A DNA stretch of 64,000 nt from Parcubacteria group bacterium Gr01-1014_3 (lineage in GTDB: Bacteria > Patescibacteriota > Minisyncoccia > UBA6257 > WO2-44-18). The translations under genes were made by a program, and so were the position numbers. The notes below the pieces were generated by a model that saw only the letters and a list, made by a program, of their open reading frames with translations, was not told where the DNA came from and searched no databases. Positions 1,313 through 61,818 of this stretch are shown one piece after another; positions within the stretch are counted from its first letter, which is position 1, and the number at the start of each line of letters is the position of its first letter. The stretch spans positions 188,203 to 252,202 of the forward strand of contig VMGF01000001.1 in assembly GCA_007376445.1 (NCBI GenBank). Reading direction: 5' to 3'.

Positions 1313-1615
1313 ATGGCTGTCAGAATAACACATATCGCGCCTAAAATCGTACCTGTTCCCACATATAAGGTTCAGGCCCATTTGACTATCGAAAACTTCA
1401 AGTGGATAAATGAACAGAGCCTTGAAAGCGGCTTATCTTCACGGACCACGATGTTTGATTGGATTGTAAACAAGAAAGGCCAGGCCTATATTAAGGTCGG
1501 CGACACCATCATCTCTGTATTCGGCGCTGTTTCGCCAACTGGGCAGCAATATATTCGGTGCATAAAAGGCAATCAGTGGTCAGACGAACTTCTCGACCTA
1601 CCATTGGTAAACTAG
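1313..1615 (+). CDS. hypothetical protein (islet cargo)
   Basis: 100-aa ORF; its stop codon lies at the first bases of the tRNA-His 3'-half duplicate. Confidence 0.35.
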   Translation: MAVRITHIAPKIVPVPTYKVQAHLTIENFKWINEQSLESGLSSRTTMFDWIVNKKGQAYIKVGDTIISVFGAVSPTGQQYIRCIKGNQWSDELLDLPLVN

Positions 1616-1661
1616 AGTTTGTGGAACTCTCATCACGGTTTCGAATCCCGTTGGGCACCCC
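1611..1661 (+). repeat. direct duplicate of the 3' 50 nt of tRNA-His (att-like), 49/50 identical
   Basis: actagagtttgtggaactctcatcacggtttcgaatcccgttgggcacccc matches tRNA-His from the D-stem 3' side to the discriminator, with one G>T change in the T-stem. Confidence 0.8.
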
Positions 1662-6022: not shown

Positions 6023-6093
6023 GCCCTCGTCGTTCAATGGAAGGACGCAAGATTGCGGATCTTGCAATTGAGGTTCAATTCCTCACGAGGGCA
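6023..6093 (+). tRNA. tRNA-Arg (anticodon GCG as read)
   Basis: Acceptor GCCCTCG/CGAGGGC, anticodon stem CAAGA/TCTTG, loop TTGCGGA, T-arm TGAGG-TTCAATT-CCTCA, discriminator A; extended -10 TTGTATAAT upstream. Confidence 0.7.
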
Positions 6094-6178
6094 CACTTCG
6101 ACAAGCTCAGTGCGAGCACTTCGGAAATCATTACAGAAAACTTGTAGTGAGCAAGGCCGAACTACTCAGTGCGAGCAA
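6094..6178 (+). repeat. tRNA 3'-trailer repeat: 24-nt linker (cacttcgacaagctcagtgcgagc) plus one 59-nt unit
   Basis: Reverse-complement match to the unit of the 3x59-bp tandem array at 10041-10239; same position relative to the tRNA as at the tRNA-Ser locus. Confidence 0.75.
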
Positions 6179-9663: not shown

Positions 9664-9681
9664 GCGGTGAGGGAGAGATTC
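9664..9681. repeat. 18-bp exact duplicate of the tRNA-Ser 3' end (gcggtgagggagagattc), att-like
   Basis: Identical to 10239-10256 at the tRNA-Ser gene; bounds a ~557-bp insertion. Confidence 0.65.
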
Positions 9682-9719
9682 CCTTCGGCTTTCGGCTCGC
9701 ATTGAGCTCGCCGAAATGC

Positions 9720-10019
9720 TCAGGACAAGTCATCACCCCTCACTAAGACTTCGATAAGCTCAGTACAAATATTATATCCCAATTTTCCATCTATCAACAT
9801 CTGCTTCTTTGCGCGAGACCATCCTTTGATTTGTCTTTCGCGCATCGCGGCTTCATGTTTCCCCGGCCACTGCTCGCAATAGACGAACTTTATATCAGAA
9901 AACTTTTTTGTAAAAAGCGACTTTCCGTTTCTATGCTCTAATAATCTTTCCGTGGGGTTATCTGAGATGCCTACATAAAAAGTTTTCTGATCGCAAAGAA
10001 GCAGGTATACGTGCCACAT
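9720..10019 (-). CDS. stand-alone GIY-YIG nuclease (YhbQ/UPF0213-like)
   Basis: MWHVYLLLCDQKTFYVGISDNPTERLLEHRNGKS shows the GIY...YIG, R and E/N catalytic pattern; the C-terminal 18 aa read through a copy of the dispersed motif. Confidence 0.65.
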   Translation of the reverse strand: MWHVYLLLCDQKTFYVGISDNPTERLLEHRNGKSLFTKKFSDIKFVYCEQWPGKHEAAMRERQIKGWSRAKKQMLIDGKLGYNICTELIEVLVRGDDLS

Positions 10020-10040
10020 TTTAGTTATTCCACAATTGGC

Positions 10041-10239
10041 TTGCACTGAGTAGTTCGGCCTTGCTCACTACAAGTTTTCTGTAATGATTTCCGAAGTGCT
10101 TGCACTGAGTAGTTCGGCCTTGTTCACTACAAGTTTTCTGTAATGATTTCCGAAGTGCTTGCACTGAGTAGTTCGGCCTTGCTCACTACAAGTTTTCTGT
10201 AATGATTTCCGAAGTGCTTGCACTGAGCTTGCCGAAGTG
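10041..10239. repeat. 3 x 59-bp perfect tandem repeats plus a 22-nt partial unit/linker abutting the tRNA-Ser 3' end
   Basis: Unit ttgcactgagtagttcggccttgctcactacaagttttctgtaatgatttccgaagtgc x3 with one C>T in unit 2, then ttgcactgag + cttgccgaagtgc. Confidence 0.9.
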
Positions 10240-10329
10240 CGGTGAGGGAGAGATTCGAACTCTCGATACGGGTTTAAATCCGTATAACAGGTTAGCAACC
10301 TGCCGCCTTCAGCCTCTCGGCCACCTCAC
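10240..10329 (-). tRNA. tRNA-Ser (anticodon GCT), long variable arm
   Basis: Acceptor GGTGAGG/CCTCACC, anticodon loop TTGCTAA, variable arm TTATACGGATTTAAACCCGTATC, T-arm GAGAG-TTCGAAT-CTCTC, discriminator G. Confidence 0.85.
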
Positions 10330-10377
10330 CAAAACTACCATTATACTAGTGCTTTTTCGCCAAAATTAAAAGACCTT

Positions 10378-27643: not shown

Positions 27644-28087
27644 ATGAGCTTAATAGTAGAAAATAGTAAGGCTTACTTCAACTATGAGATTCTCGAAAAA
27701 TACGAAGCGGGAGTTGAATTGAAGGGGTATGAAGTGAAAGCAGTTAAAGCCGGCCGGGCTCATTTGGCCGGAGCTTTCGCGACCGTCAAAGATAATCAGA
27801 TCTGGCTCACCAACGCCGACATCCAGCCATATCAGCCGAAAAACACCCCCGCCGGCTATGACCATACCCGCCCCCGCCGCCTCCTCTTAAATAGGAAGGA
27901 AATTAACTATCTGATCAGCAAGATGAAGTCCGATAAGTTGACAATAGTGCCTTTAAAGTTGTATAATAAAGGCGGTCGGATCAAGATTGAGCTCGGTTTA
28001 GCTCGCGGCAAGAAGCAATACGAAAAGCGCGAGAAGATCAAAAAACGAGAAGTTCAACGCGAGATCCGGCGCACGTTAAAATCGTAA
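27644..28087 (+). CDS. smpB: SsrA-binding protein SmpB
   Basis: YFNYEILEKYEAGVELKGYEVKA...; Lys/Arg-rich C-tail. Confidence 0.9.
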   Translation: MSLIVENSKAYFNYEILEKYEAGVELKGYEVKAVKAGRAHLAGAFATVKDNQIWLTNADIQPYQPKNTPAGYDHTRPRRLLLNRKEINYLISKMKSDKLTIVPLKLYNKGGRIKIELGLARGKKQYEKREKIKKREVQREIRRTLKS

Positions 28088-28157
28088 CTACGCCAATATA
28101 CTAATCAAGCACTGATATACGAATTCGTATATTCGCGCTATATTCGTATATTAGTGA
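28088..28157. repeat. MITE-like repeat, copy A of a 3-member family (TIR CACTAATATAC / GTATATTRGYG)
   Basis: Reverse-complement similarity to 49234-49325 and 60626-60700; internal ATATACGAATTCGTATAT palindrome. Confidence 0.55.
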
Positions 28158-28165
28158 AGTTTTAG

Positions 28166-28480
28166 GGGGATGAAAGGCCTCGACGAAGACTTTTCTTTAA
28201 TAATCGCAAGCCGAGCTGAACTCGCTCGTAAAACCGGTTCAAAATCTTAATTGCTAACCAAAAATTAGCTTTAGCCTACGCGTAATAGCGTTTGCTCATC
28301 GGCGGCTTGATGTCCTATCGGGTCATCACCGGTGTTATATCTAGGACTTAAGAAATGCTCTCGTGATTCCGGGATCATTTACGAAAACCAATGAATCATT
28401 CGTTCTGATTTATCAGATCTAAGCTTGTAGAAGTTATTACTGAAAATTTTCGGATGTCGGTTCAACTCCGACCATCTCCA
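28166..28480 (+). ncRNA. ssrA: tmRNA (ssrA), tag reading frame (A)NQKLALAYA
   Basis: 5' GGGGAUGAAAGGCCUCGACG and 3' GGAUGUCGGUUCAACUCCGACCAUCUCCA resemble the E. coli tmRNA ends; acceptor GGGGAUG/CAUCUCC; in-frame gct aac caa aaa tta gct tta gcc tac gcg taa; lies immediately after smpB. Confidence 0.75.
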
Positions 28481-28490
28481 CTACTTCGCA

Positions 28491-49225: not shown

Positions 49226-49233
49226 ATATACTC

Positions 49234-49325
49234 CACTAATATACTAATAAAGCGCGAATATACCAATTCTGCTCACTGGTTTGTTTTATAAGTATATTAG
49301 TGCTCGATTCGTATATTGGCGTAGT
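49234..49325. repeat. MITE-like repeat copy B, filling the gap between the two polA-derived genes
   Basis: cactaatatactaat...gtgctcgattcgtatattggcgtag; related to copies A and C. Confidence 0.55.
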
Positions 49326-51369: not shown

Positions 51370-51593
51370 GATCGCAACTTGGCGAGAACTTCTTCCACCG
51401 GAACGCCTCCTTTTTTAATTTTAGTAAAGTCAATGACTTCTTCCCAAATTTCATCTTCCTCGGAAAGCGGGACTATCTTGAATATCGGTTTAGACCGACG
51501 AACAATGACAAAAGAATCGCCCTTCTTTTGGATAGCGTCAATGTATTGCTCTGTGTGTTCTCTTAATTCTCTTAAACCGGCTATTTTGTTCAT
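51336..51593 (-). CDS. Phd/YefM-type antitoxin
   Basis: 85 aa; overlaps the toxin start by 34 nt; IAGLRELREHTEQYIDAIQKKGDSFVIVRRSKP. Confidence 0.6.
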   Translation of the reverse strand: MNKIAGLRELREHTEQYIDAIQKKGDSFVIVRRSKPIFKIVPLSEEDEIWEEVIDFTKIKKGGVPVEEVLAKLRSWTNSKKRSKS

Positions 51594-51623: not shown

Positions 51624-51935
51624 TCAACCCCGCACCTTTCAAGCACCGAGAAGGCTATCGCGTATCCGTCCTTTTAATTGACCGTATGCTTTTCCAAAAT
51701 ACTTTAGATTATGTTCTCTTCGTATAGCGTCTTCTTTAGAGCGATAGCCTTCTGTGTAGACTAACCTCCACGGTTTATAACGCTTAGTCGCTTTAGATAG
51801 ACCATCGTTATGCTCTGTTAGTCTATTTTTTAAATCATTCGTATAGCCTATGTATAAAGTGTCGTTCACGGCACTTTTTATTATATATATCCAGTACATG
51901 GAAGAAGTATTGTGCTTGAAAGGTGCGGGGTCAAG
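51624..51935. mobile_element. GIY-YIG gene enclosed by 20-23 bp perfect inverted repeats (TCAACCCCGCACCTTTCAAGCAC)
   Basis: Left IR 51624-51646, right IR 51912-51935; the ORF stop lies inside the left IR and the start 13 nt from the right IR; an empty copy of the palindrome is at 57779-57847. Confidence 0.6.
51639..51899 (-). CDS. stand-alone GIY-YIG nuclease (YhbQ-like)
   Basis: MYWIYIIKSAVNDTLYIGYTNDLKNRLTEHN... Confidence 0.7.
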   Translation of the reverse strand: MYWIYIIKSAVNDTLYIGYTNDLKNRLTEHNDGLSKATKRYKPWRLVYTEGYRSKEDAIRREHNLKYFGKAYGQLKGRIRDSLLGA

Positions 51936-57219: not shown

Positions 57220-57705
57220 ATGAAGATCCTAGGTATTGATCCCGGAAGCACCCGAATCGGTTATGGAATTATAGAAGATGCCGTAGGCTTGAAGCTCCTT
57301 GATTATGGAGTTTTAGAAATCAAAGAAAATAATTTGCCCAGCCGGCTCAATCGGTTGTCAGTTTTATTTGATGAACTTATTAAAAAACATCGACCAGAAC
57401 TGGCGGGCGTAGAAAAAATATTCTTTGCTAAAAACACCAAGACCGCCATCGATGTATCGCATTCCCGCGGAGTCATACTCGCGGCCATACAGAAGAATCA
57501 GATTCCGATCATGGAGTTCACTCCGAATGAAGTTAAGCTGGCTGTTTCCGGGTATGGATTGTCGGATAAAAAAGCGGTGGCTAAAATGGTGATGCGAATA
57601 TTAAATTTAAAAGAGCTTAAAGGATATGACGATGCCAGCGACGCGATCGCGATAGCGCTGACAACGGCTTTTAATAAAAAGCTGGCTGGACTTGCCAGGA
57701 AGTAG
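57220..57705 (+). CDS. ruvC: crossover-junction endodeoxyribonuclease RuvC
   Basis: MKILGIDPGSTRIGYGIIE, RNase H-like fold. Confidence 0.9.
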   Translation: MKILGIDPGSTRIGYGIIEDAVGLKLLDYGVLEIKENNLPSRLNRLSVLFDELIKKHRPELAGVEKIFFAKNTKTAIDVSHSRGVILAAIQKNQIPIMEFTPNEVKLAVSGYGLSDKKAVAKMVMRILNLKELKGYDDASDAIAIALTTAFNKKLAGLARK

Positions 57706-57961
57706 AAGTTCGACCGTTTTGGAATGCGCTCGCGAAGCGAGAAGTCGAACTTTCACTTCCTGGCTTGCTTAAATGGGGGTTGACCCCGCACCTTTCCAAG
57801 GGCATTATCCAAATTGGGTGCTACCCTTGGAAAGGTGCGGGGTTGACAGTAAAATGAGTTTATATATAATTCACCTAATAAATTACATTTAAAACCAGGT
57901 AGTAGAAGTTCGATCGCTTTGAATGCCTCGCGAAGCGAGAAATCGAACTTTCACTACCTGG
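57694..57961. repeat. composite palindromic repeat cluster: two ~70-bp hairpin repeats (57694-57764 and 57895-57961) flanking a 23-bp-arm hairpin (57779-57847) that matches the GIY-YIG-element IR
   Basis: ccaggaagtagaagttcgac...gtcgaactttcacttcctgg twice; ggttgaccccgcacctttccaagg / ccttggaaaggtgcggggttgac. Confidence 0.65.
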
Positions 57962-58233: not shown

Positions 58234-60621
58234 ATGCGTAAGATCGTTATATATGGTGGTGGGGCTATTTTTGGCTTTTTTTTAATCGGCGTAATCAGTT
58301 TTTTTGTGATCACCAGCGACCTTCCAGGCCCGGAAATTTTGAGCAGCCGGCAGGTTTCGGAATCCACTAAGATCTACGACCGGACCGGGGAAGTTTTGCT
58401 GTACGAAATTCACGGAGAAGAAAAACGAACCTTGGTGCCGCTGGAAAAAATCCCAGAAGTCGTAAAGCAAGCCACGATCGCTATTGAAGATGTGAACTTT
58501 TATAATCACGGCGCTTTTGACCTGAAGGCTCTGCTCCGGGCAGTTTATTCCAACCTGACCGATGGCTACGGTAGTCAGGGCGGCTCCACGATCACCCAAC
58601 AACTGGCGAAAAAAGCTTTCTTGTCCGATGAGAAAAAACTCACCAGAAAGATCCGAGAATTGGTTCTCGCTATAAGGTTAGAAAAAGAATTCACCAAAGA
58701 TGAAATTTTAACTCTTTATCTGAATCAGATCCCGTATGGCTCAAACGCTTACGGCATCCAGGCCGCGGCGCAAACTTATTTTTCTAAAAATGTAGAAGCT
58801 TTAACTCTGCCCGAAGCAGCTATTCTAGCCAGCTTGCCGCAAGCGCCGTCTTATTATTCGCCGTGGGGCGCGAATTATCAGGAGCTGCTTGATCGTAAAG
58901 ACACGGTTCTGGAGAAAATGTTCCAGCTCGGTTATATCGATGAAAAAACCAAAGATCAGGCTATAAAACAAAAGTTAAATTTCTCTTCCCGCTCGGTGGG
59001 CATTAAAGCTCCGCATTTCGTCGTCGCGGTCCAGGATTATCTTAATGAAAAATACGGCGAAGGCTTCGTGCAAACCGCCGGACTGAAGGTTATCACCACT
59101 TTAGACTGGACCCTTCAGCAGATCGCGGAACGGGTCGTTTATGACGGCGCTAAACGCAACGAAGAGTTGTATGCCGGCAAGAACGCGGCTCTGGTGGCTC
59201 AAGACGCGACTACTGGCCAGATTTTGGCGATGGTCGGCTCTAGAGATTATTTCGAAGAGGGAGTCGGAAATTTTAACGTCGCCACTCAGGGATTGCGCCA
59301 GCCGGGTTCCACGATCAAGCCATTCGCTTATCTAGCCGCTTTTAAAAAAGGCTTTACGCCGGACACGATGGTCTTCGATCTGGAAACTGAATTTGACGCG
59401 ACCGGCGATCCGGAAAAAAGTTATAAGCCGCAAAACTTCGATGAAATATTCCGGGGTCCGGTTACTTTACGCCAAGCGCTCGGCCAATCAATCAATATTC
59501 CCTCAATCAAAACACTTTATTTAGCCGGTATCGATAATTTACTAAAACTTTTAAAGACTTTCGGCGTAACCACGCTCACCGAGCGAAGCCGTTATGGTTT
59601 ATCTTTAGTTCTCGGCGGCGGCGAGATGAAATTAAATGAGATCGTCGGGGCTTATTCGGTCTTCGCCCAGGAAGGCATTTACCATAAACAAGCGATGGTT
59701 CTTTCGGTCGCTCAAAACGGAAAGATGCTGGAGCAATATTCTGATGAATCGGAGCAAGTCATCGAATCGCAATATACTCGCTTGATCACCGATATTTTAA
59801 CTGACATCGATATTCGTTCCGGTTTATTTGGCGGAAGTTTAGGGTTAACGATGTTTCCAAATCATGAAGTAGCGATGAAAACCGGTACGACCAATGATTA
59901 TCGCGATGCTTGGACAATCGGCTACACGCCGTCGTTCGTAGTCGGCGTCTGGGCCGGTAACAACGATAACGCTCCGATGCAAAAACGCGGTAGCAGTCTT
60001 TTAGCCGCCGTTCCGATCTGGAGCGCTTTCCTCCGGGAAGCTTTACCAACCCAGCCGACCACGACTTTTAGCCGTCCCGATCCGATCTTCACCGATAAAC
60101 CGATGCTAAACGGCCAGTATATCGTTAATTACTCCGTGGCCGGCCAGAATTATCCACAGATCCATGATCTTCTTTACTATGTGGATAAAAGCGATCCGTT
60201 AGGTCCGGCGCCGGCGAATCCGGAAGAAGATTCTCAATTTACCAACTGGGAAGATCCGGTAATTGAATGGGCCAAGACTCATCTGCCTAATTTTGATACT
60301 TATAATCGCCCGGTTCCTAGTAATGCCACCGCGCAAGTTTCGGAAGAAATCATCAGTAATAATATTATTTCTCCAAAAAACGGATCTTTTCTTAAAAATC
60401 CTCTTTCGGTTTACGCGGAAATAAAAACAAACTTAAATATTAAAACAGTAGAGGTTTATTTTAATAACCAATTAATAGATCGGGTTTTGAATGTCGGGAA
60501 ATATTATATTTACACTAAAAACCTCTCGCTTCAGAATATTGAACTTCAGAATACTTTAAAAATCCTAGTATTAGACGAACTGAATAATAAATCGGAGAAA
60601 GAAATTATTCTCTATAAATAA
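58234..60621 (+). CDS. class A penicillin-binding protein (transglycosylase + transpeptidase)
   Basis: N-terminal TM anchor, GT51 motifs (IAIEDVNFYNHGAFD), SxxK/SxN-type transpeptidase domain. Confidence 0.85.
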   Translation: MRKIVIYGGGAIFGFFLIGVISFFVITSDLPGPEILSSRQVSESTKIYDRTGEVLLYEIHGEEKRTLVPLEKIPEVVKQATIAIEDVNFYNHGAFDLKALLRAVYSNLTDGYGSQGGSTITQQLAKKAFLSDEKKLTRKIRELVLAIRLEKEFTKDEILTLYLNQIPYGSNAYGIQAAAQTYFSKNVEALTLPEAAILASLPQAPSYYSPWGANYQELLDRKDTVLEKMFQLGYIDEKTKDQAIKQKLNFSSRSVGIKAPHFVVAVQDYLNEKYGEGFVQTAGLKVITTLDWTLQQIAERVVYDGAKRNEELYAGKNAALVAQDATTGQILAMVGSRDYFEEGVGNFNVATQGLRQPGSTIKPFAYLAAFKKGFTPDTMVFDLETEFDATGDPEKSYKPQNFDEIFRGPVTLRQALGQSINIPSIKTLYLAGIDNLLKLLKTFGVTTLTERSRYGLSLVLGGGEMKLNEIVGAYSVFAQEGIYHKQAMVLSVAQNGKMLEQYSDESEQVIESQYTRLITDILTDIDIRSGLFGGSLGLTMFPNHEVAMKTGTTNDYRDAWTIGYTPSFVVGVWAGNNDNAPMQKRGSSLLAAVPIWSAFLREALPTQPTTTFSRPDPIFTDKPMLNGQYIVNYSVAGQNYPQIHDLLYYVDKSDPLGPAPANPEEDSQFTNWEDPVIEWAKTHLPNFDTYNRPVPSNATAQVSEEIISNNIISPKNGSFLKNPLSVYAEIKTNLNIKTVEVYFNNQLIDRVLNVGKYYIYTKNLSLQNIELQNTLKILVLDELNNKSEKEIILYK

Positions 60622-60625
60622 ACTC

Positions 60626-60700
60626 CACTAATATACGAATATAGCGCTAATATACTAATACATAAATTCGAATATTCGTGCTTGATTAGTATATTCGTTG
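60626..60700. repeat. MITE-like repeat copy C, filling the convergent PBP / dnaN gap exactly
   Basis: cactaatatacgaatatagcgctaatatactaat...gtgcttgattagtatattcg. Confidence 0.55.
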
Positions 60701-60702
60701 AG

Positions 60703-61818
60703 TTACACCGATTTGATCGGCATCAAAATATAACTATAAGACTCGTCCTCCGGAGATTTAATATTCGCCGGTTTAACACTGCCGTTGATTCCAAATAAAA
60801 GATTTTCCGAATCCACCGCTTTCAAACCATCCATCAGATAACGCCAGTTGAAAGATATTTCGCTGACTTTCTCTCCTTTTATTTTCGCCGGGATCAGATA
60901 TTTGTTTTCTCCCAAAGACTGGCTCACGGAATAAATCTCCACCACCTTCGATCCTTCGTCTATTTTTAATTTAATATCGTTGGTCCGGCCGGCGAAGTTA
61001 CTAACTAGTTTTAAAGCATTCACTAGATAATCTTTATTTAAAATAATCTCCGTTTCGATTCCTTTTGGAATGATCTGTTCGTAGTCAGGATAATCCCCGT
61101 CTATAATCCTTGAAATTAGCTCTAATTCCTCGTTTTTAAAAAGAATCTGCGTATTATCCATATAGATCTTAATCGGCTGATTATCGCCAAAAATACGCAC
61201 AACTTCCGAGATAGTTTTTAATGGCACAATCACTTTAAAACCATGATTAAAATTGTGTTTGAATTGATTGGTATTGATCGTTTTATAGGCCAAACGGAAA
61301 GCATCAGTTGCCACTAGTTTCATCAGGGTCATCTGAAAATCGATCAAAACCCCGCTGATCTCTGGCCTAATTTCGGAAATTTGAGCCGCGCTAACCACTT
61401 TAAACACCCCGTCTTTAAAGATCGGCGCCTCTATTTCCATATTGTAATCCTCGTTCTCAATCTTCGGAATGATTGGGAACTCTTCCTCTGTAACTCCTTG
61501 GATCTTGGCTTCGTAATTATCGGTTTTGAAAATAAGGGTATTATTTTTCGTCTCAAGATTGATCCTTTCGCTGTCGGTATTATTAACAATGCTATATAAA
61601 GTCGAGAATGGCACAGTAATGCCGCCTTCTTCGATGATCTTTCCGGAAGTGAATTTCGTAATGCCTAATTCTAGATTGGTCGCCGCGATCTTAATTTTAT
61701 TATTATAAGTTTTAATTAAAACGTTCCTTAAAATCGGTAAATTATTATTATCCGATACAGCCCTCTCAACGGCTGACAATCCTTCTTTTAAATTACTTCT
61801 TAGGATGATGAGTTTCAT
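60703..61818 (-). CDS. dnaN: DNA polymerase III beta sliding clamp
   Basis: MKLIILRSNLKEGLSAVERAV...; three-domain clamp; located beside dnaA. Confidence 0.9.
   Translation of the reverse strand: MKLIILRSNLKEGLSAVERAVSDNNNLPILRNVLIKTYNNKIKIAATNLELGITKFTSGKIIEEGGITVPFSTLYSIVNNTDSERINLETKNNTLIFKTDNYEAKIQGVTEEEFPIIPKIENEDYNMEIEAPIFKDGVFKVVSAAQISEIRPEISGVLIDFQMTLMKLVATDAFRLAYKTINTNQFKHNFNHGFKVIVPLKTISEVVRIFGDNQPIKIYMDNTQILFKNEELELISRIIDGDYPDYEQIIPKGIETEIILNKDYLVNALKLVSNFAGRTNDIKLKIDEGSKVVEIYSVSQSLGENKYLIPAKIKGEKVSEISFNWRYLMDGLKAVDSENLLFGINGSVKPANIKSPEDESYSYILMPIKSV

Follow-up and report, generated by a model that had tools for sequence, protein, structure and literature searches.

What is a small nuclease gene doing inside a perfect inverted repeat that ends a few nucleotides before its start codon and takes in its stop codon, and does the arrangement reflect a gene that entered an existing hairpin or a unit that moves as a whole? 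The question is raised by a GIY-YIG nuclease gene in the window, a stretch of 64,000 nucleotides from contig VMGF01000001.1 of Parcubacteria group bacterium Gr01-1014_3. An earlier note, made from the letters of the window, had put forward both alternatives. Comparison with other genomes and metagenomes favors the second, and as the best reading we propose that the locus is probably a compact mobile cassette, bounded by an inverted repeat and accompanied by MITE-like derivatives.

A gene-bearing and a gene-less copy in the window

The repeat finder places the two arms (ACCCCGCACCTTTCAAGCAC at 51627-51646) 265 nt apart (Table 1). The pairing, described in the earlier note as perfect over 20-23 bp, holds for 20 bp and not for 23, since the outer bases, out to 51624 and 51935, are not complementary and a direct repeat is found there instead, reading TCAA on the + strand and TTGA on the gene strand. 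The start codon (51899-51897) lies near the right arm as had been proposed, at a distance of 12 nt and not 13, and the stop codon (51641-51639) is indeed inside the left arm, together with the final two codons of the gene. The interior has the length first given for it and thus consists of a 12-nt leader and the ORF, not entirely of the ORF. The arm on the start-codon side comprises the core CCCGCACC, typical of the arm class designated A below, followed by the lineage-specific stem extension AAGCAC, and flank comparison gives the junctions as cttga CCCCGCACC ... GGTGCGGGG ttgac.

Table 1. Coordinates of the features at the gene-bearing and gene-less loci of the window
Feature	Position	Strand	Remarks
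Inverted-repeat arm, start-codon side	51912..51931	-	gene strand ACCCCGCACCTTTCAAGCAC; 20 nt, 100% complementary
Inverted-repeat 3' arm	51627..51646	-	gene strand GTGCTTGAAAGGTGCGGGGT; stop codon inside
Upstream TTGA direct repeat	51931..51934	-	with the first C of the element gives TTGAC, start of a -35-like hexamer
Downstream TTGA direct repeat	51624..51627	-	with the next bases gives TTGACA, a -35-type hexamer before the phd-parE toxin-antitoxin operon
GIY-YIG nuclease ORF	51639..51899	-	86 aa and TGA stop; single domain, UPF0213/Slx1 type
Candidate promoter TTGACC-17-AATACT	51906..51934	-	9/12 match (promoter scan); ends 6 nt before ATG
Internal 13-bp perfect inverted repeat within ORF	51649..51661, partner 51741-51753	.	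repeat finder; in predicted ssDNA fold
Gene-less 59-bp hairpin element	57784..57842	+	termini CCCCGCACCTTTC ... GAAAGGTGCGGGG, same as gene-bearing copy
Left TTGA direct repeat of gene-less copy	57780..57783	+	flank comparison
Right TTGA repeat and perfect sigma-70 promoter TTGACA-16-TATAAT	57843..57870	+	12/12 match; directed away from element

The -35 hexamer of the candidate promoter is built from the flanking repeat and the arm, and its -10 hexamer lies inside the element; the analogous TTGACC-16/17-TAAAAT/TATAAT is present in two gene-bearing copies from other genomes (L015 and L038), and the sequence may serve as a leaderless promoter for the nuclease gene. A promoter-like TTGAAA-18-GATAAT at 51642-51613 is directed toward phd-parE, where the Phd start codon lies at 51593 and both Phd and ParE are matched by Pfam.

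The ORF-free version of the palindrome that had also been noticed is real, and it is flanked by ruvC (57220-57705) and a gene for a class A PBP (58234-60621). Positions 57780-57847 are predicted to fold into a 24-bp DNA stem (-28 kcal/mol, z=-7.6), and the ends are identical to those of the gene-bearing copy over 17 nt (TTGACCCCGCACCTTTC) and 19 nt (GAAAGGTGCGGGGTTGACA). The 14-mer ACCCCGCACCTTTC occurs four times in the window, in every case at these two loci, compared with an expectation of 0.40, and none of 100 shuffles reaches four. Within the 64 kb there are only these two copies. On balance we believe that 51628-51930 on the - strand and 57784-57842 are, respectively, a gene-bearing and a gene-less member of one family of miniature mobile cassettes, and that this family is widespread.

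The nuclease, its repeat and their distribution

The encoded protein matches the GIY-YIG family PF01541 in Pfam with 69.6 bits (cutoff 22.6, E=2.8e-19), and in an alignment of 38 sequences Y5 is nearly invariant while Y16-I17-G18, R26, H30 and E62 are invariant. The AF2 model (pLDDT 92.8) has E-E-H-E-H topology. Profile matches in the PDB are to 1zg2 (5.3e-12), 1ywl (5e-8) and SLX1 (3e-4 to 8e-3), with no other family at E<=0.01, and Foldseek retrieves UPF0213, Slx1 (TM 0.64-0.67), I-TevI and UvrC N-terminal domains. Judged by sequence and modeled fold, the protein is nearest the YhbQ/YazA/Slx1 branch and not the UvrC, I-TevI or restriction-enzyme branches. Slx1 cleaves branched and stem-loop DNA in a structure-specific manner, and its family takes in YhbQ and YazA (PMC7017083). 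We rejected a two-domain homing enzyme of the Seg/I-TevI kind, the protein being a single domain of 86 aa that scores 22.5 bits against TIGR01453 (cutoff 56.05) in a match confined to profile positions 4-49 of 215. Among the anti-phage defense profiles of PADLOC there were only partial matches to PDC-S14 (E=0.008, 13 bits), and no membership in a defense system was found.

A scan for TTGACCCCGCACCTTTC across 185,579 species genomes returned 62 loci, 30 of which, in several phyla, have an inverted partner 24-304 nt downstream; a GIY-YIG ORF is enclosed in two of the 30 (L015 and L038). Starting instead from the protein, the repeat was present at all four independently fetched close homologues (L064, L068, L072 and L074), including one between leuC and leuD (L072) and one between priA and yicC (L074). 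In metagenomes, searched with a profile of 20 closer sequences, a flanking inverted repeat scoring at least 12 was found at 67 of 80 relatives and at 2 of 263 shifted controls. In the 67 repeat-bearing relatives, which represent many phyla and genomic contexts, the repeat hugs the start and stop codons. Once the genome scan and the metagenome relatives are included, copies number many more than the two alone that, by the terms of the earlier note, would have spoken against its proposal; the cassette exists in hundreds of copies over several bacterial phyla. The repeat is missing from the more distant homologues P0062, P0065 and P0067 and from E. coli yhbQ, and we therefore rejected the idea that it is a general property of UPF0213 genes. 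Two of these three distant homologues are entangled with tRNA genes in another manner.

A full cassette measures ~300 bp and consists of the 86-aa ORF and an inverted repeat of 12-22 bp that lies 0-27 nt from the start codon and no more than about 40 nt from the stop codon, with a C-run at the left outer end and a G-run at the right (CCCCGCACCTTTCAAGCAC / GTGCTTGAAAGGTGCGGGG in the window copy). In several units the arms include the ATG itself (CCCCGCACCTTTTATG / CATAAAAGG...). The arms fall into five sequence classes, and the nearest protein neighbor belongs to the same class in 63 of 70 cases. The ORFs of 18 non-redundant class-A units show 56% identity (45% at third positions), while the 8-nt core CCCGCACC/GGTGCGGG is conserved in all, with paired changes adjoining it. 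By these comparisons the class of the repeat follows the protein clade, conservation is far stronger in the repeat than in the gene, and the two are inherited together as one unit in Patescibacteria, Omnitrophota, Nitrospirota and other groups.

Cognate gene-less or tandem copies accompany the gene at 12 of ~65 loci, two of them as 100%-identical tandem copies. Gene-less and gene-bearing units on the same contig have 20-30 nt of lineage-specific ends in common, the loops of gene-less copies range from 24 to 117 nt, and one Omnitrophota MAG carries four dispersed, near-identical gene-less copies. Two different classes are also seen to flank a single tRNA gene; this arrangement and the identical tandem copies are represented by L095, L148 and L120. 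Orthologous insertions whose sequences have diverged, between leuC and leuD in L072/L091 and beside a common downstream gene in L116/L131, show that a copy can be of considerable age and be passed on vertically.

The C-run and G-run ends are adjoined by direct repeats of 3 nt or more in 55% of units, against 5% of permuted pairs, and by repeats of 4 nt or more in 43%, against 2%; ~45% of units have no clear flanking duplication. The direct repeats are 3-7 nt long, reaching 11-12 nt at tRNA genes, and mostly contain TGA, TAA or TAG; a range of 3 to 12 nt is unusual for a single transposase mechanism. Insertion sites comprise promoter -35 boxes, operon junctions at which stop and start codons overlap as ATGA, and the outermost bases, at either end, of tRNA genes. 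At -35 boxes, as in both window copies, each flanked by TTGA, this tetranucleotide occurs in duplicate and the right end restores the -35 of the host; at ATGA overlaps, the terminal G of the element and the following TG recreate a GTG start; and class-C elements extend with their right arms over nt 1-5 of tRNA-Ala/Val/Lys genes, 10-12 nt of tRNA sequence being repeated on the left side. A full -35/-10 pattern extends from the right arm in 21 of 31 related elements, against a baseline of 14% for any TTGAC in those loci, and a TTGAC in the right flank proves to be a genuine -35 in 21 of 25 cases. The copies occupy positions where harm is avoided.

Population data on presence and absence, also suggested in the earlier note, brought no polymorphism to light: exact-protein look-ups with the nuclease, its 99% relative P0001, TsaE and RuvC returned contigs of the population (L001 and L171-L175) that are all 100% identical to the window, with no empty site among them. 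The window itself is part of contig k139_87659 (264,686 bp) of ENA ERZ27284378. One weak match among 2.9 M viral contigs, four distant matches in 50,697 phage records and three distant matches in a plasmid collection led us to reject phages or plasmids as the vehicle of transfer, the element being essentially absent from the phage and plasmid collections; its context is one of chromosomal housekeeping genes.

A proposed mechanism and the alternatives

The earlier proposal of a self-contained, hairpin-bounded mobile unit is favored by the frequency of the repeat among relatives, the agreement of repeat class with protein neighbor, the common ends and the direct repeats that flank gene-bearing and gene-less copies alike. 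We infer, rather than observe, mobility and the role of the nuclease in it. The nuclease would recognize the ends of its own cassette, most likely as a DNA hairpin or cruciform; for a structure-specific enzyme of the Slx1 type, recognition of such a structure as a dimer on two identical half-sites is expected. A cut at the donor ends and/or the target would then lead to copying or insertion, finished by host repair. GIY-YIG enzymes are hydrolytic nucleases that are not known to carry out strand transfer, and for any transposition the cassette would have to depend on repair by the host. Gene-less hairpins would be non-autonomous partners of the MITE or REPIN kind, or derivatives formed by deletion. 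The nuclease gene of the window copy may have a promoter of its own, made up of the duplicated TTGA, the arm and the internal AATACT. More tentatively, and with less than even confidence, we suggest that these cassettes form an undescribed class of prokaryotic transposable element, in which the sole protein, an 86-residue Slx1-like GIY-YIG nuclease, recognizes and cuts the hairpin or cruciform of its own C-run/G-run termini, which has MITE-like non-autonomous copies and a preference for TGA/TAA/TAG sites (-35 boxes, operon junctions and tRNA gene ends), and which occurs in Patescibacteria, Omnitrophota, Nitrospirota and other phyla. To our knowledge, no prokaryotic element has been demonstrated to be moved by a GIY-YIG enzyme, and the literature searched contained no published description of a GIY-YIG gene enclosed by an inverted repeat as a cassette.

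The other alternative of the earlier note, a gene dropped into a pre-existing hairpin, is less favored and in our judgment unlikely. The hairpin family would here be independent of the gene; the nuclease would cut gene-less hairpins, in which the two half-sites are near each other, and repair from a gene-bearing copy through homology of the 20-30-bp arms would spread the gene from filled to empty sites, filled copies being immune with their half-sites 265 bp apart. Homing endonuclease genes of the GIY-YIG type are well established as selfish genes, the cassette gene is always in the loop, and gene-less and gene-bearing copies in one genome match over 17-30 nt per end, all as homing would have it. 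Homing leaves unexplained, however, how hairpins arrive at new sites with apparent target duplications, and many gene-bearing units lie at leuC|leuD or at tRNA position +1, where no prior hairpin is expected; gene-less loops of 24-117 nt fit poorly with a dimer needing fixed spacing, and the DNA-binding domain found in known GIY-YIG homing enzymes is missing from the protein, as its TIGR01453 score also indicates. The repeat could, alternatively, act in RNA to regulate a small nuclease gene that is in other respects ordinary, its arms pairing in the transcript around the ORF so that the start codon is sequestered, or forming an RNase III site that excises the cassette from an operon mRNA. The closeness of the arms to the ATG, which several of them include, the complementarity kept by paired changes, and the 32 of 67 units in which a co-directional ORF ends at most 80 nt upstream, such that read-through RNA would hold both arms, are all compatible with this explanation, which we nevertheless regard as very unlikely. 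Gene-less copies retain their arms with nothing to regulate, and mismatches compatible with G-U pairing on the sense strand are not in excess (12 vs 10). The candidate -10 of the window copy, L015 and L038 is located downstream from the left arm, which would leave that arm out of the gene's own transcript, and class-C right arms, which overlap the 5' strand of the tRNA acceptor, would be in competition with the folding of the tRNA; Rfam gave no match, and the flanking direct repeats are left unexplained.

More doubtful still is a domesticated, vertically inherited system analogous to REPIN-RAYT, in which a single-copy nuclease maintains hairpins that serve the host, for example upstream of promoters or as insulators, and is no selfish transposon. 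The geometry is that of RAYT genes between inverted REPs (PMC3116915, PMC3337134), promoters and start codons are restored by the right ends, and the orthologous insertions in L072/L091 and L116/L131 have been kept through divergence. Against domestication stand the 100%-identical tandem gene copies and the two classes around one tRNA gene, close protein relatives in different phyla, the report of GIY-YIG proteins among genes transferred from Patescibacteria (PMC12455944) and the low copy number in the window. That the hairpin is coincidental, or a generic terminator or REP-like structure unrelated to the nuclease gene, is scarcely credible. GC-rich stems are common in intergenic DNA and T-rich sequence follows some right arms; yet the contrast between relatives and shifted controls already refutes such an origin, the terminator scan flags neither window copy, and class-C arms directly adjoin a tRNA gene. 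The palindrome is tied to the gene and is not the generic terminator that the earlier note had named as a refutation.

Several specific identities were also rejected. An intrinsic terminator is incompatible with a loop of 265 nt (the gene-less loop is 21 nt), and the stem is followed by TTGACA and not by a T-run. A covariance search of Rfam yielded nothing at the gathering threshold, and the matches to miRNA precursors that did appear are of a generic hairpin kind and score far below it. The consensus of the integron attC core and inverse core is GTTRRRY / RYYYAAC; the cassette ends do not fit it, and an attC-like site was rejected. The arms resemble tRNA 3' ends (…CCCCGCACC, …CCCCCACACCA), but mimicry of the acceptor stem was rejected because the strand order is reversed, with the C-strand first and the G-strand second.

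Should the nuclease indeed mobilize the cassette, the latter, with ~300 bp and one 86-aa protein, would be the smallest autonomous bacterial mobile element known and the first among prokaryotic elements to rely solely on a GIY-YIG nuclease. One branch of the large, uncharacterized UPF0213/YhbQ family would gain a function, and conserved intergenic hairpins that annotation pipelines ignore in genomes of candidate phyla would be accounted for. The family would also provide very small nucleases whose DNA recognition sequences are readable and co-evolve with them, in five arm classes so far. Its insertion logic, in which the TTGA of a -35 box is duplicated, GTG or ATG is recreated and tRNA genes are left intact, would be that of a nearly cost-free selfish element in streamlined genomes.

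Comparison with known systems

Within the UPF0213/YhbQ/YazA/Slx1 branch, the best sequence and fold matches are BH0048 (1zg2), EF2693 (1ywl) and the Slx1 domain. Bacterial stand-alone proteins of the UPF0213 type (85-100 aa) are of comparable size and have the conserved Y...YIG...R...H...E in common with the cassette protein, which lacks the RING/PHD finger and the Slx4 partner of Slx1. The cassette family is set apart from UPF0213 by the enclosing repeat, which E. coli yhbQ lacks, and by its gene-less copies and putative target duplications. Homing genes of the Seg or I-TevI kind resemble the cassette as selfish GIY-YIG nuclease genes wedged between host genes, and T4 SegB, too, is located among tRNA genes. 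Their products, unlike the cassette protein, have 200-250 aa with a linker and a DNA-binding domain, and the genes are phage- or intron-borne and free of bounding inverted repeats. The 5'-UTR hairpins of 'fractured gene' endonucleases are local and do not span the gene (PMC2677866).

REP/RAYT (REPIN) systems likewise place a small nuclease-type gene between two inverted, hairpin-forming repeats that are also found gene-less elsewhere, and hairpins at the DNA level are the likely substrate there, as they may be for the cassette. RAYTs, however, are HUH Y1 transposases of the IS200/IS605 type, and REPs bear GTAG/CGTC tags and number hundreds of copies, whereas the cassette has a GIY-YIG enzyme, CCCC.../...GGGG ends without a GTAG tag, a low copy number and flanking direct repeats. 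With insertion sequences and MITEs the cassette has in common terminal inverted repeats, flanking direct repeats that may be target duplications, gene-less derivatives with the same ends, and tandem and nested copies; its outward promoter context is like that of some MITEs, e.g., Correia elements. Insertion sequences encode a DDE, HUH, serine or tyrosine transposase, whereas the only ORF of the cassette is the GIY-YIG nuclease; the cassette is smaller than any autonomous insertion sequence, and the length of its duplications is variable. IS200/IS605 elements come close in having hairpin-capable ends and in inserting beside a short specific sequence (TTAC/TTGAT there; TTGA, TGAA or TAA here). 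In these elements, however, the left and right hairpins are subterminal and non-complementary, the enzyme is TnpA (HUH) and the target is not duplicated, whereas in the cassette one repeat spans the whole element and flanking direct repeats are present.

Gene-bearing and gene-less copies

Direct reading of the sequence and a repeat finder place an ORF, assigned by Pfam to GIY-YIG, within a palindrome and its stop codon within one arm, as the earlier note had claimed, the ATG being separated from the other arm by 12 nt. The palindrome had been described as perfect over 20-23 bp; 20 nt are indeed fully complementary, but the further 3-4 outer bases are noncomplementary and constitute a direct repeat, TTGA, at either side (gene strand). 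On the minus strand the order is ruvB, an LTD-domain gene, tsaE, the cassette and a phd-parE toxin-antitoxin pair, and the cassette abuts the TTGACA preceding phd. The ORF-free version of the palindrome, also reported earlier, was recovered between ruvC and a class A PBP gene; it has its ends in common with the gene-bearing copy (TTGACCCCGCACCTTTC and GAAAGGTGCGGGGTTGACA), forms a 24-bp stem when folded as DNA (-28 kcal/mol, z=-7.6), is likewise flanked by TTGA and abuts a perfect promoter, TTGACA-16-TATAAT. Within the window, a 14-mer core occurs only at the four arms of these two copies (0.4 expected; 0 of 100 shuffles reached four).

The GIY-YIG ORF contains a perfect 13-bp inverted repeat (codons for EGY and DSL), of which a 10-bp version is found in L015 (L-numbers denote loci or contigs from other genomes and metagenomes). 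Adjoining phd-parE is a GC-rich ORF (55-64% GC vs ~40% in the surroundings) that had no match in a Pfam search and is possibly foreign DNA. Two copies of a different hairpin flank the gene-less element, and the same-population short-read contigs L174 and L175 terminate at this pair. Elsewhere, tRNA-Ser(gct) is followed by three tandem 59-nt repeats and then by a second GIY-YIG ORF, divergent in sequence; the region as a whole (9664-10330) has the appearance of DNA inserted at the 3' end of the tRNA, with a duplication resembling an att site. On the other strand, the 59-nt unit borders tRNA-Arg(gcg) at its 3' end as well, which makes two loci where this repeat family accompanies a tRNA 3' end. 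The region 547-1661, in which tRNA-His repeats enclose ~1 kb with two ORFs of unassigned function, is probably a small island integrated at tRNA-His. One member of an AT-rich palindromic repeat family lies directly 5' of the tmRNA gene.

Coordinates of the cassette copies and other repeat-associated features in the window
Feature	Position	Strand	Remarks
Inverted-repeat arms, gene-bearing copy	51627-51646 / 51912-51931		20 nt, 100% complementary, spacing 265 nt; repeat finder
GIY-YIG ORF, 86 aa	ATG 51899 to TGA 51641-51639	minus	Pfam E=2.8e-19
Gene-less copy	57780-57847		
ORF-internal inverted repeat	51649-51661 / 51741-51753		13 bp
GC-rich ORF, 261 aa	50296-51081		
Hairpin CCAGGAAGTAGAAGTTCGA...TCGAACTTTCACTTCCTGG	57695-57766; 57896-57961		66-72 nt
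Second GIY-YIG ORF	10019 to 9720	minus	34% identical; Pfam E=2e-13
tRNA-Ser(gct)	10330-10239		
59-nt tandem repeats	10039-10227		three units
tRNA-Ser(gct), last 18 nt	10239-10256; 9664-9681		
tRNA-Arg(gcg)	6023-6094		
59-nt repeat unit, two loci	6094-6177 / 10156-10239		84 nt, 96% complementary
tRNA-His, 3' 51 nt	569-619; 1611-1661		98% identical
ORFs between tRNA-His repeats	695-1273; 1313-1615		
AT-rich palindromic repeats (ATATACTAAT...)	28084-28162; 49226-49325; 60618-60706		
tmRNA gene	28166-28483		

Association of the nuclease gene with its arms

The palindrome is not private to the window's genome. An exact scan for TTGACCCCGCACCTTTC in one genome per species (185,579 species) returned 62 loci, approximately the chance number for a 17-mer, and 30 of them have an inverted partner (≤2 mismatches in 13) 24-304 nt downstream. 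These paired loci are found in MAGs labelled Patescibacteria, Omnitrophota, Bdellovibrionales, Planctomycetaceae, Elusimicrobia and Gammaproteobacteria, and some MAGs in the scan hold three or four copies each. Two of the 30, L015 and L038, enclose a GIY-YIG ORF in the geometry seen in the window, their proteins being only 46-59% identical to the window's. In these copies the inner stem extension varies from one to the next yet is complementary (AAGCAC/GTGCTT, AGGCAT/ATGCCT, GGGGTTT/AAACCCC).

Gene and repeat are inherited as a unit. Among the 68 homologues found in a protein search with the nuclease, four placed on contigs lie in unrelated contexts (after ksgA; beside a DsbA gene; leuC/leuD in an Omnitrophota MAG; priA/yicC in a Nitrospirota MAG), and all four are flanked by CCCGCACCT... 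arms; many homologues end in KGAG, which is translated AAAGGTGCGGGG, and over-extended gene calls start with DPAPF, translated GACCCCGCACCTTTC. A metagenome scan with a 20-sequence alignment as query yielded at least 540 relatives, and 67 of the 80 loci analysed have an inverted repeat scoring ≥12 at 0-27 nt from the start and ~40 nt from the stop, a score reached in only 2 of 263 controls of the same geometry shifted by 1.2-3 kb. Among close relatives, the gene was not found without the repeat; in more distant homologues, including E. coli YhbQ, the flanking repeat is absent. Two loci with distant homologues that lack C-run arms involve tRNA genes: in L084 (3001-3620) tandem nuclease genes alternate with them, and in L088 (2900-3410) the nuclease gene lies between partial and complete copies of tRNA-Asn.

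The arms fall into five sequence classes, all with a C-run at the start: CCCGCACC (the window's class, A; 20 loci), CCCCACAC (21), CCCCTCAC (20), CCCCTCTTTT (4) and CCCCCACC (5). Arm and protein co-vary, the class being the same as that of the nearest protein neighbour (<95% identity) in 63 of 70 cases. Across 18 non-redundant class-A units, ORF nucleotide identity is 56% (45% at third positions), an 8-nt core is invariant at both sides, and the positions beside the core change pairwise (outside, T...A vs C...G; inside, TATC/GATA, TTTT/AAAA, TTCT/AGAA). Non-coding conservation that tracks the protein clade in this way suggests that the arms are recognised by the protein which the element encodes, and not by some host factor common to all.

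Possible mobility and insertion sites

Cognate gene-less copies and tandem identical copies both occur. In 12 of ~65 loci, additional cognate arm pairs are present at a distance of up to 5 kb, whereas about two single hits overall would be expected by chance; gene-bearing units are in tandem and 100% identical in L095, L120 has a nested pair, a 592-bp segment of L148 (2040-3010) is tandemly duplicated at 100% identity, and gene-less hairpins of 48-200 nt lie near cognate units in L099, L105, L132 and L161. Where a contig has both gene-less and gene-bearing units, these match over 20-30 nt at each end, lineage-specific stem extension included, and one Omnitrophota MAG carries four gene-less copies with unrelated distant flanks. 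In L148 the GIY-YIG gene is not enclosed by arms and carries a Shine-Dalgarno sequence; 25 nt downstream of it is a class-A hairpin, separate and gene-less.

With element ends set at the C-run and G-run, direct repeats of ≥3 nt abut both ends in 55% of 60 non-redundant units vs 5% of permuted left/right pairs, and repeats of ≥4 nt in 43% vs 2%. They differ from site to site (TAA, TTGA, TGAA, CTAA, CATAA, TATG, NNNNTAG and others), and most contain a TGA, TAA or TAG triplet. Against mobility, however, these duplications are variable in length and often absent, and certain insertions (L072/L091, L116/L131) are old. The contigs of the window's population are all identical to the window and show no insertion polymorphism, and phage and plasmid collections contain almost no copies of the element. 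We know of no strand-transfer chemistry in GIY-YIG enzymes.

Three types of site recur, namely promoter -35 boxes, ATGA stop/start overlaps and tRNA gene ends. Of 31 non-redundant elements seeded with TTGAC on the left, 25 also have TTGAC no more than 3 nt from the right arm. In 21 of these 25 it is followed at 15-18 nt by TAnnnT, a pattern shown by 14% of all TTGACs in those loci; the -10 and the spacer vary from one site to the next and so are host DNA. Six units with class-B arms read ...cATGA|ACCCCC...GGGGG|TGAAA..., such that the terminal G of the element and the duplicated TG form a GTG start for the downstream gene, and in L072 and L091 the right arm is overlapped by the ATG of leuD. 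In class C, GGGGC of the right arm forms the first five nucleotides of a tRNA-Ala, -Val or -Lys gene, and the left side carries a repeat of 10-12 nt from the 5' end of the tRNA; a single tRNA-Ala in L120 has a class-C unit 5' and a class-B unit 3', and a gene-less class-C hairpin precedes tRNA-Val in L132. About half of all units lie within 80 nt after a co-directional ORF, often at 0-8 nt.

Both window copies have a strong predicted fold as single-stranded DNA. Among 1,223 arm pairs there are 39 mismatches, 12 of them G-T/T-G and 10 C-A/A-C, and thus no sense-strand bias of the type expected from an RNA stem. The gene-less copies have nothing present to regulate, and a transcript from the candidate promoter formed by the left TTGACC and a -10-like hexamer 16-17 nt after it (window, L015, L038) would exclude the left arm. 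An Rfam search gave no matching family, and a terminator scan of the window flagged neither copy. On these grounds a DNA-level role is favoured, with an additional RNA effect possible in read-through transcripts.

The nuclease, a proposed mechanism and related systems

The AlphaFold model of the 86-aa protein is confident (pLDDT 92.8), and homologues show little or no variation at the catalytic Tyr, Tyr-Ile-Gly, Arg, His and Glu. A profile search of PDB sequences matched only two UPF0213 structural-genomics proteins (5e-12, 5e-8) and Slx1 (3e-4 and weaker), and Foldseek ranked UPF0213 and Slx1 (TM 0.64-0.67) above the I-TevI and UvrC nuclease domains; by sequence and predicted fold, the protein is assigned to the UPF0213/Slx1 branch. 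It lacks a DNA-binding extension, falls below the cutoff of a group I intron endonuclease model (22.5 bits; cutoff 56) and had no match in a defence-family profile search.

We infer every enzymatic step of the following mechanism. The cassette would be a mobile unit with ends CCCC... and ...GGGG, whose nuclease, probably a dimer, would recognise both ends, which are identical, most plausibly in an extruded form (hairpin or cruciform), and cut at the ends and/or at a target containing TGA/TAA/TAG. Host repair would then finish copying into the new site and generate short duplications that vary in length; gene-less hairpins would borrow the nuclease in trans or be deletion derivatives, and selection would retain only insertions that regenerate promoters, start codons or tRNA genes.

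A full-text literature search found no account of GIY-YIG genes in inverted repeats with gene-less copies, the nearest published items being 'fractured gene' endonucleases with local 5'-UTR hairpins (PMC2677866) and GIY-YIG proteins listed among genes transferred from Patescibacteria (PMC12455944). The cassette is akin to known selfish nuclease genes and miniature inverted-repeat elements, and we lean against its being a categorically new class of transposable element, while giving that reading a real chance. In operation it comes closest to a REPIN-RAYT pair or to an IS and its MITEs, but has neither the HUH nor the DDE transposase that defines those systems. With the phage Seg and I-TevI endonucleases it has in common a selfish GIY-YIG gene, whereas those enzymes are two-domain proteins resident in phages or introns, and the cassette protein is neither.
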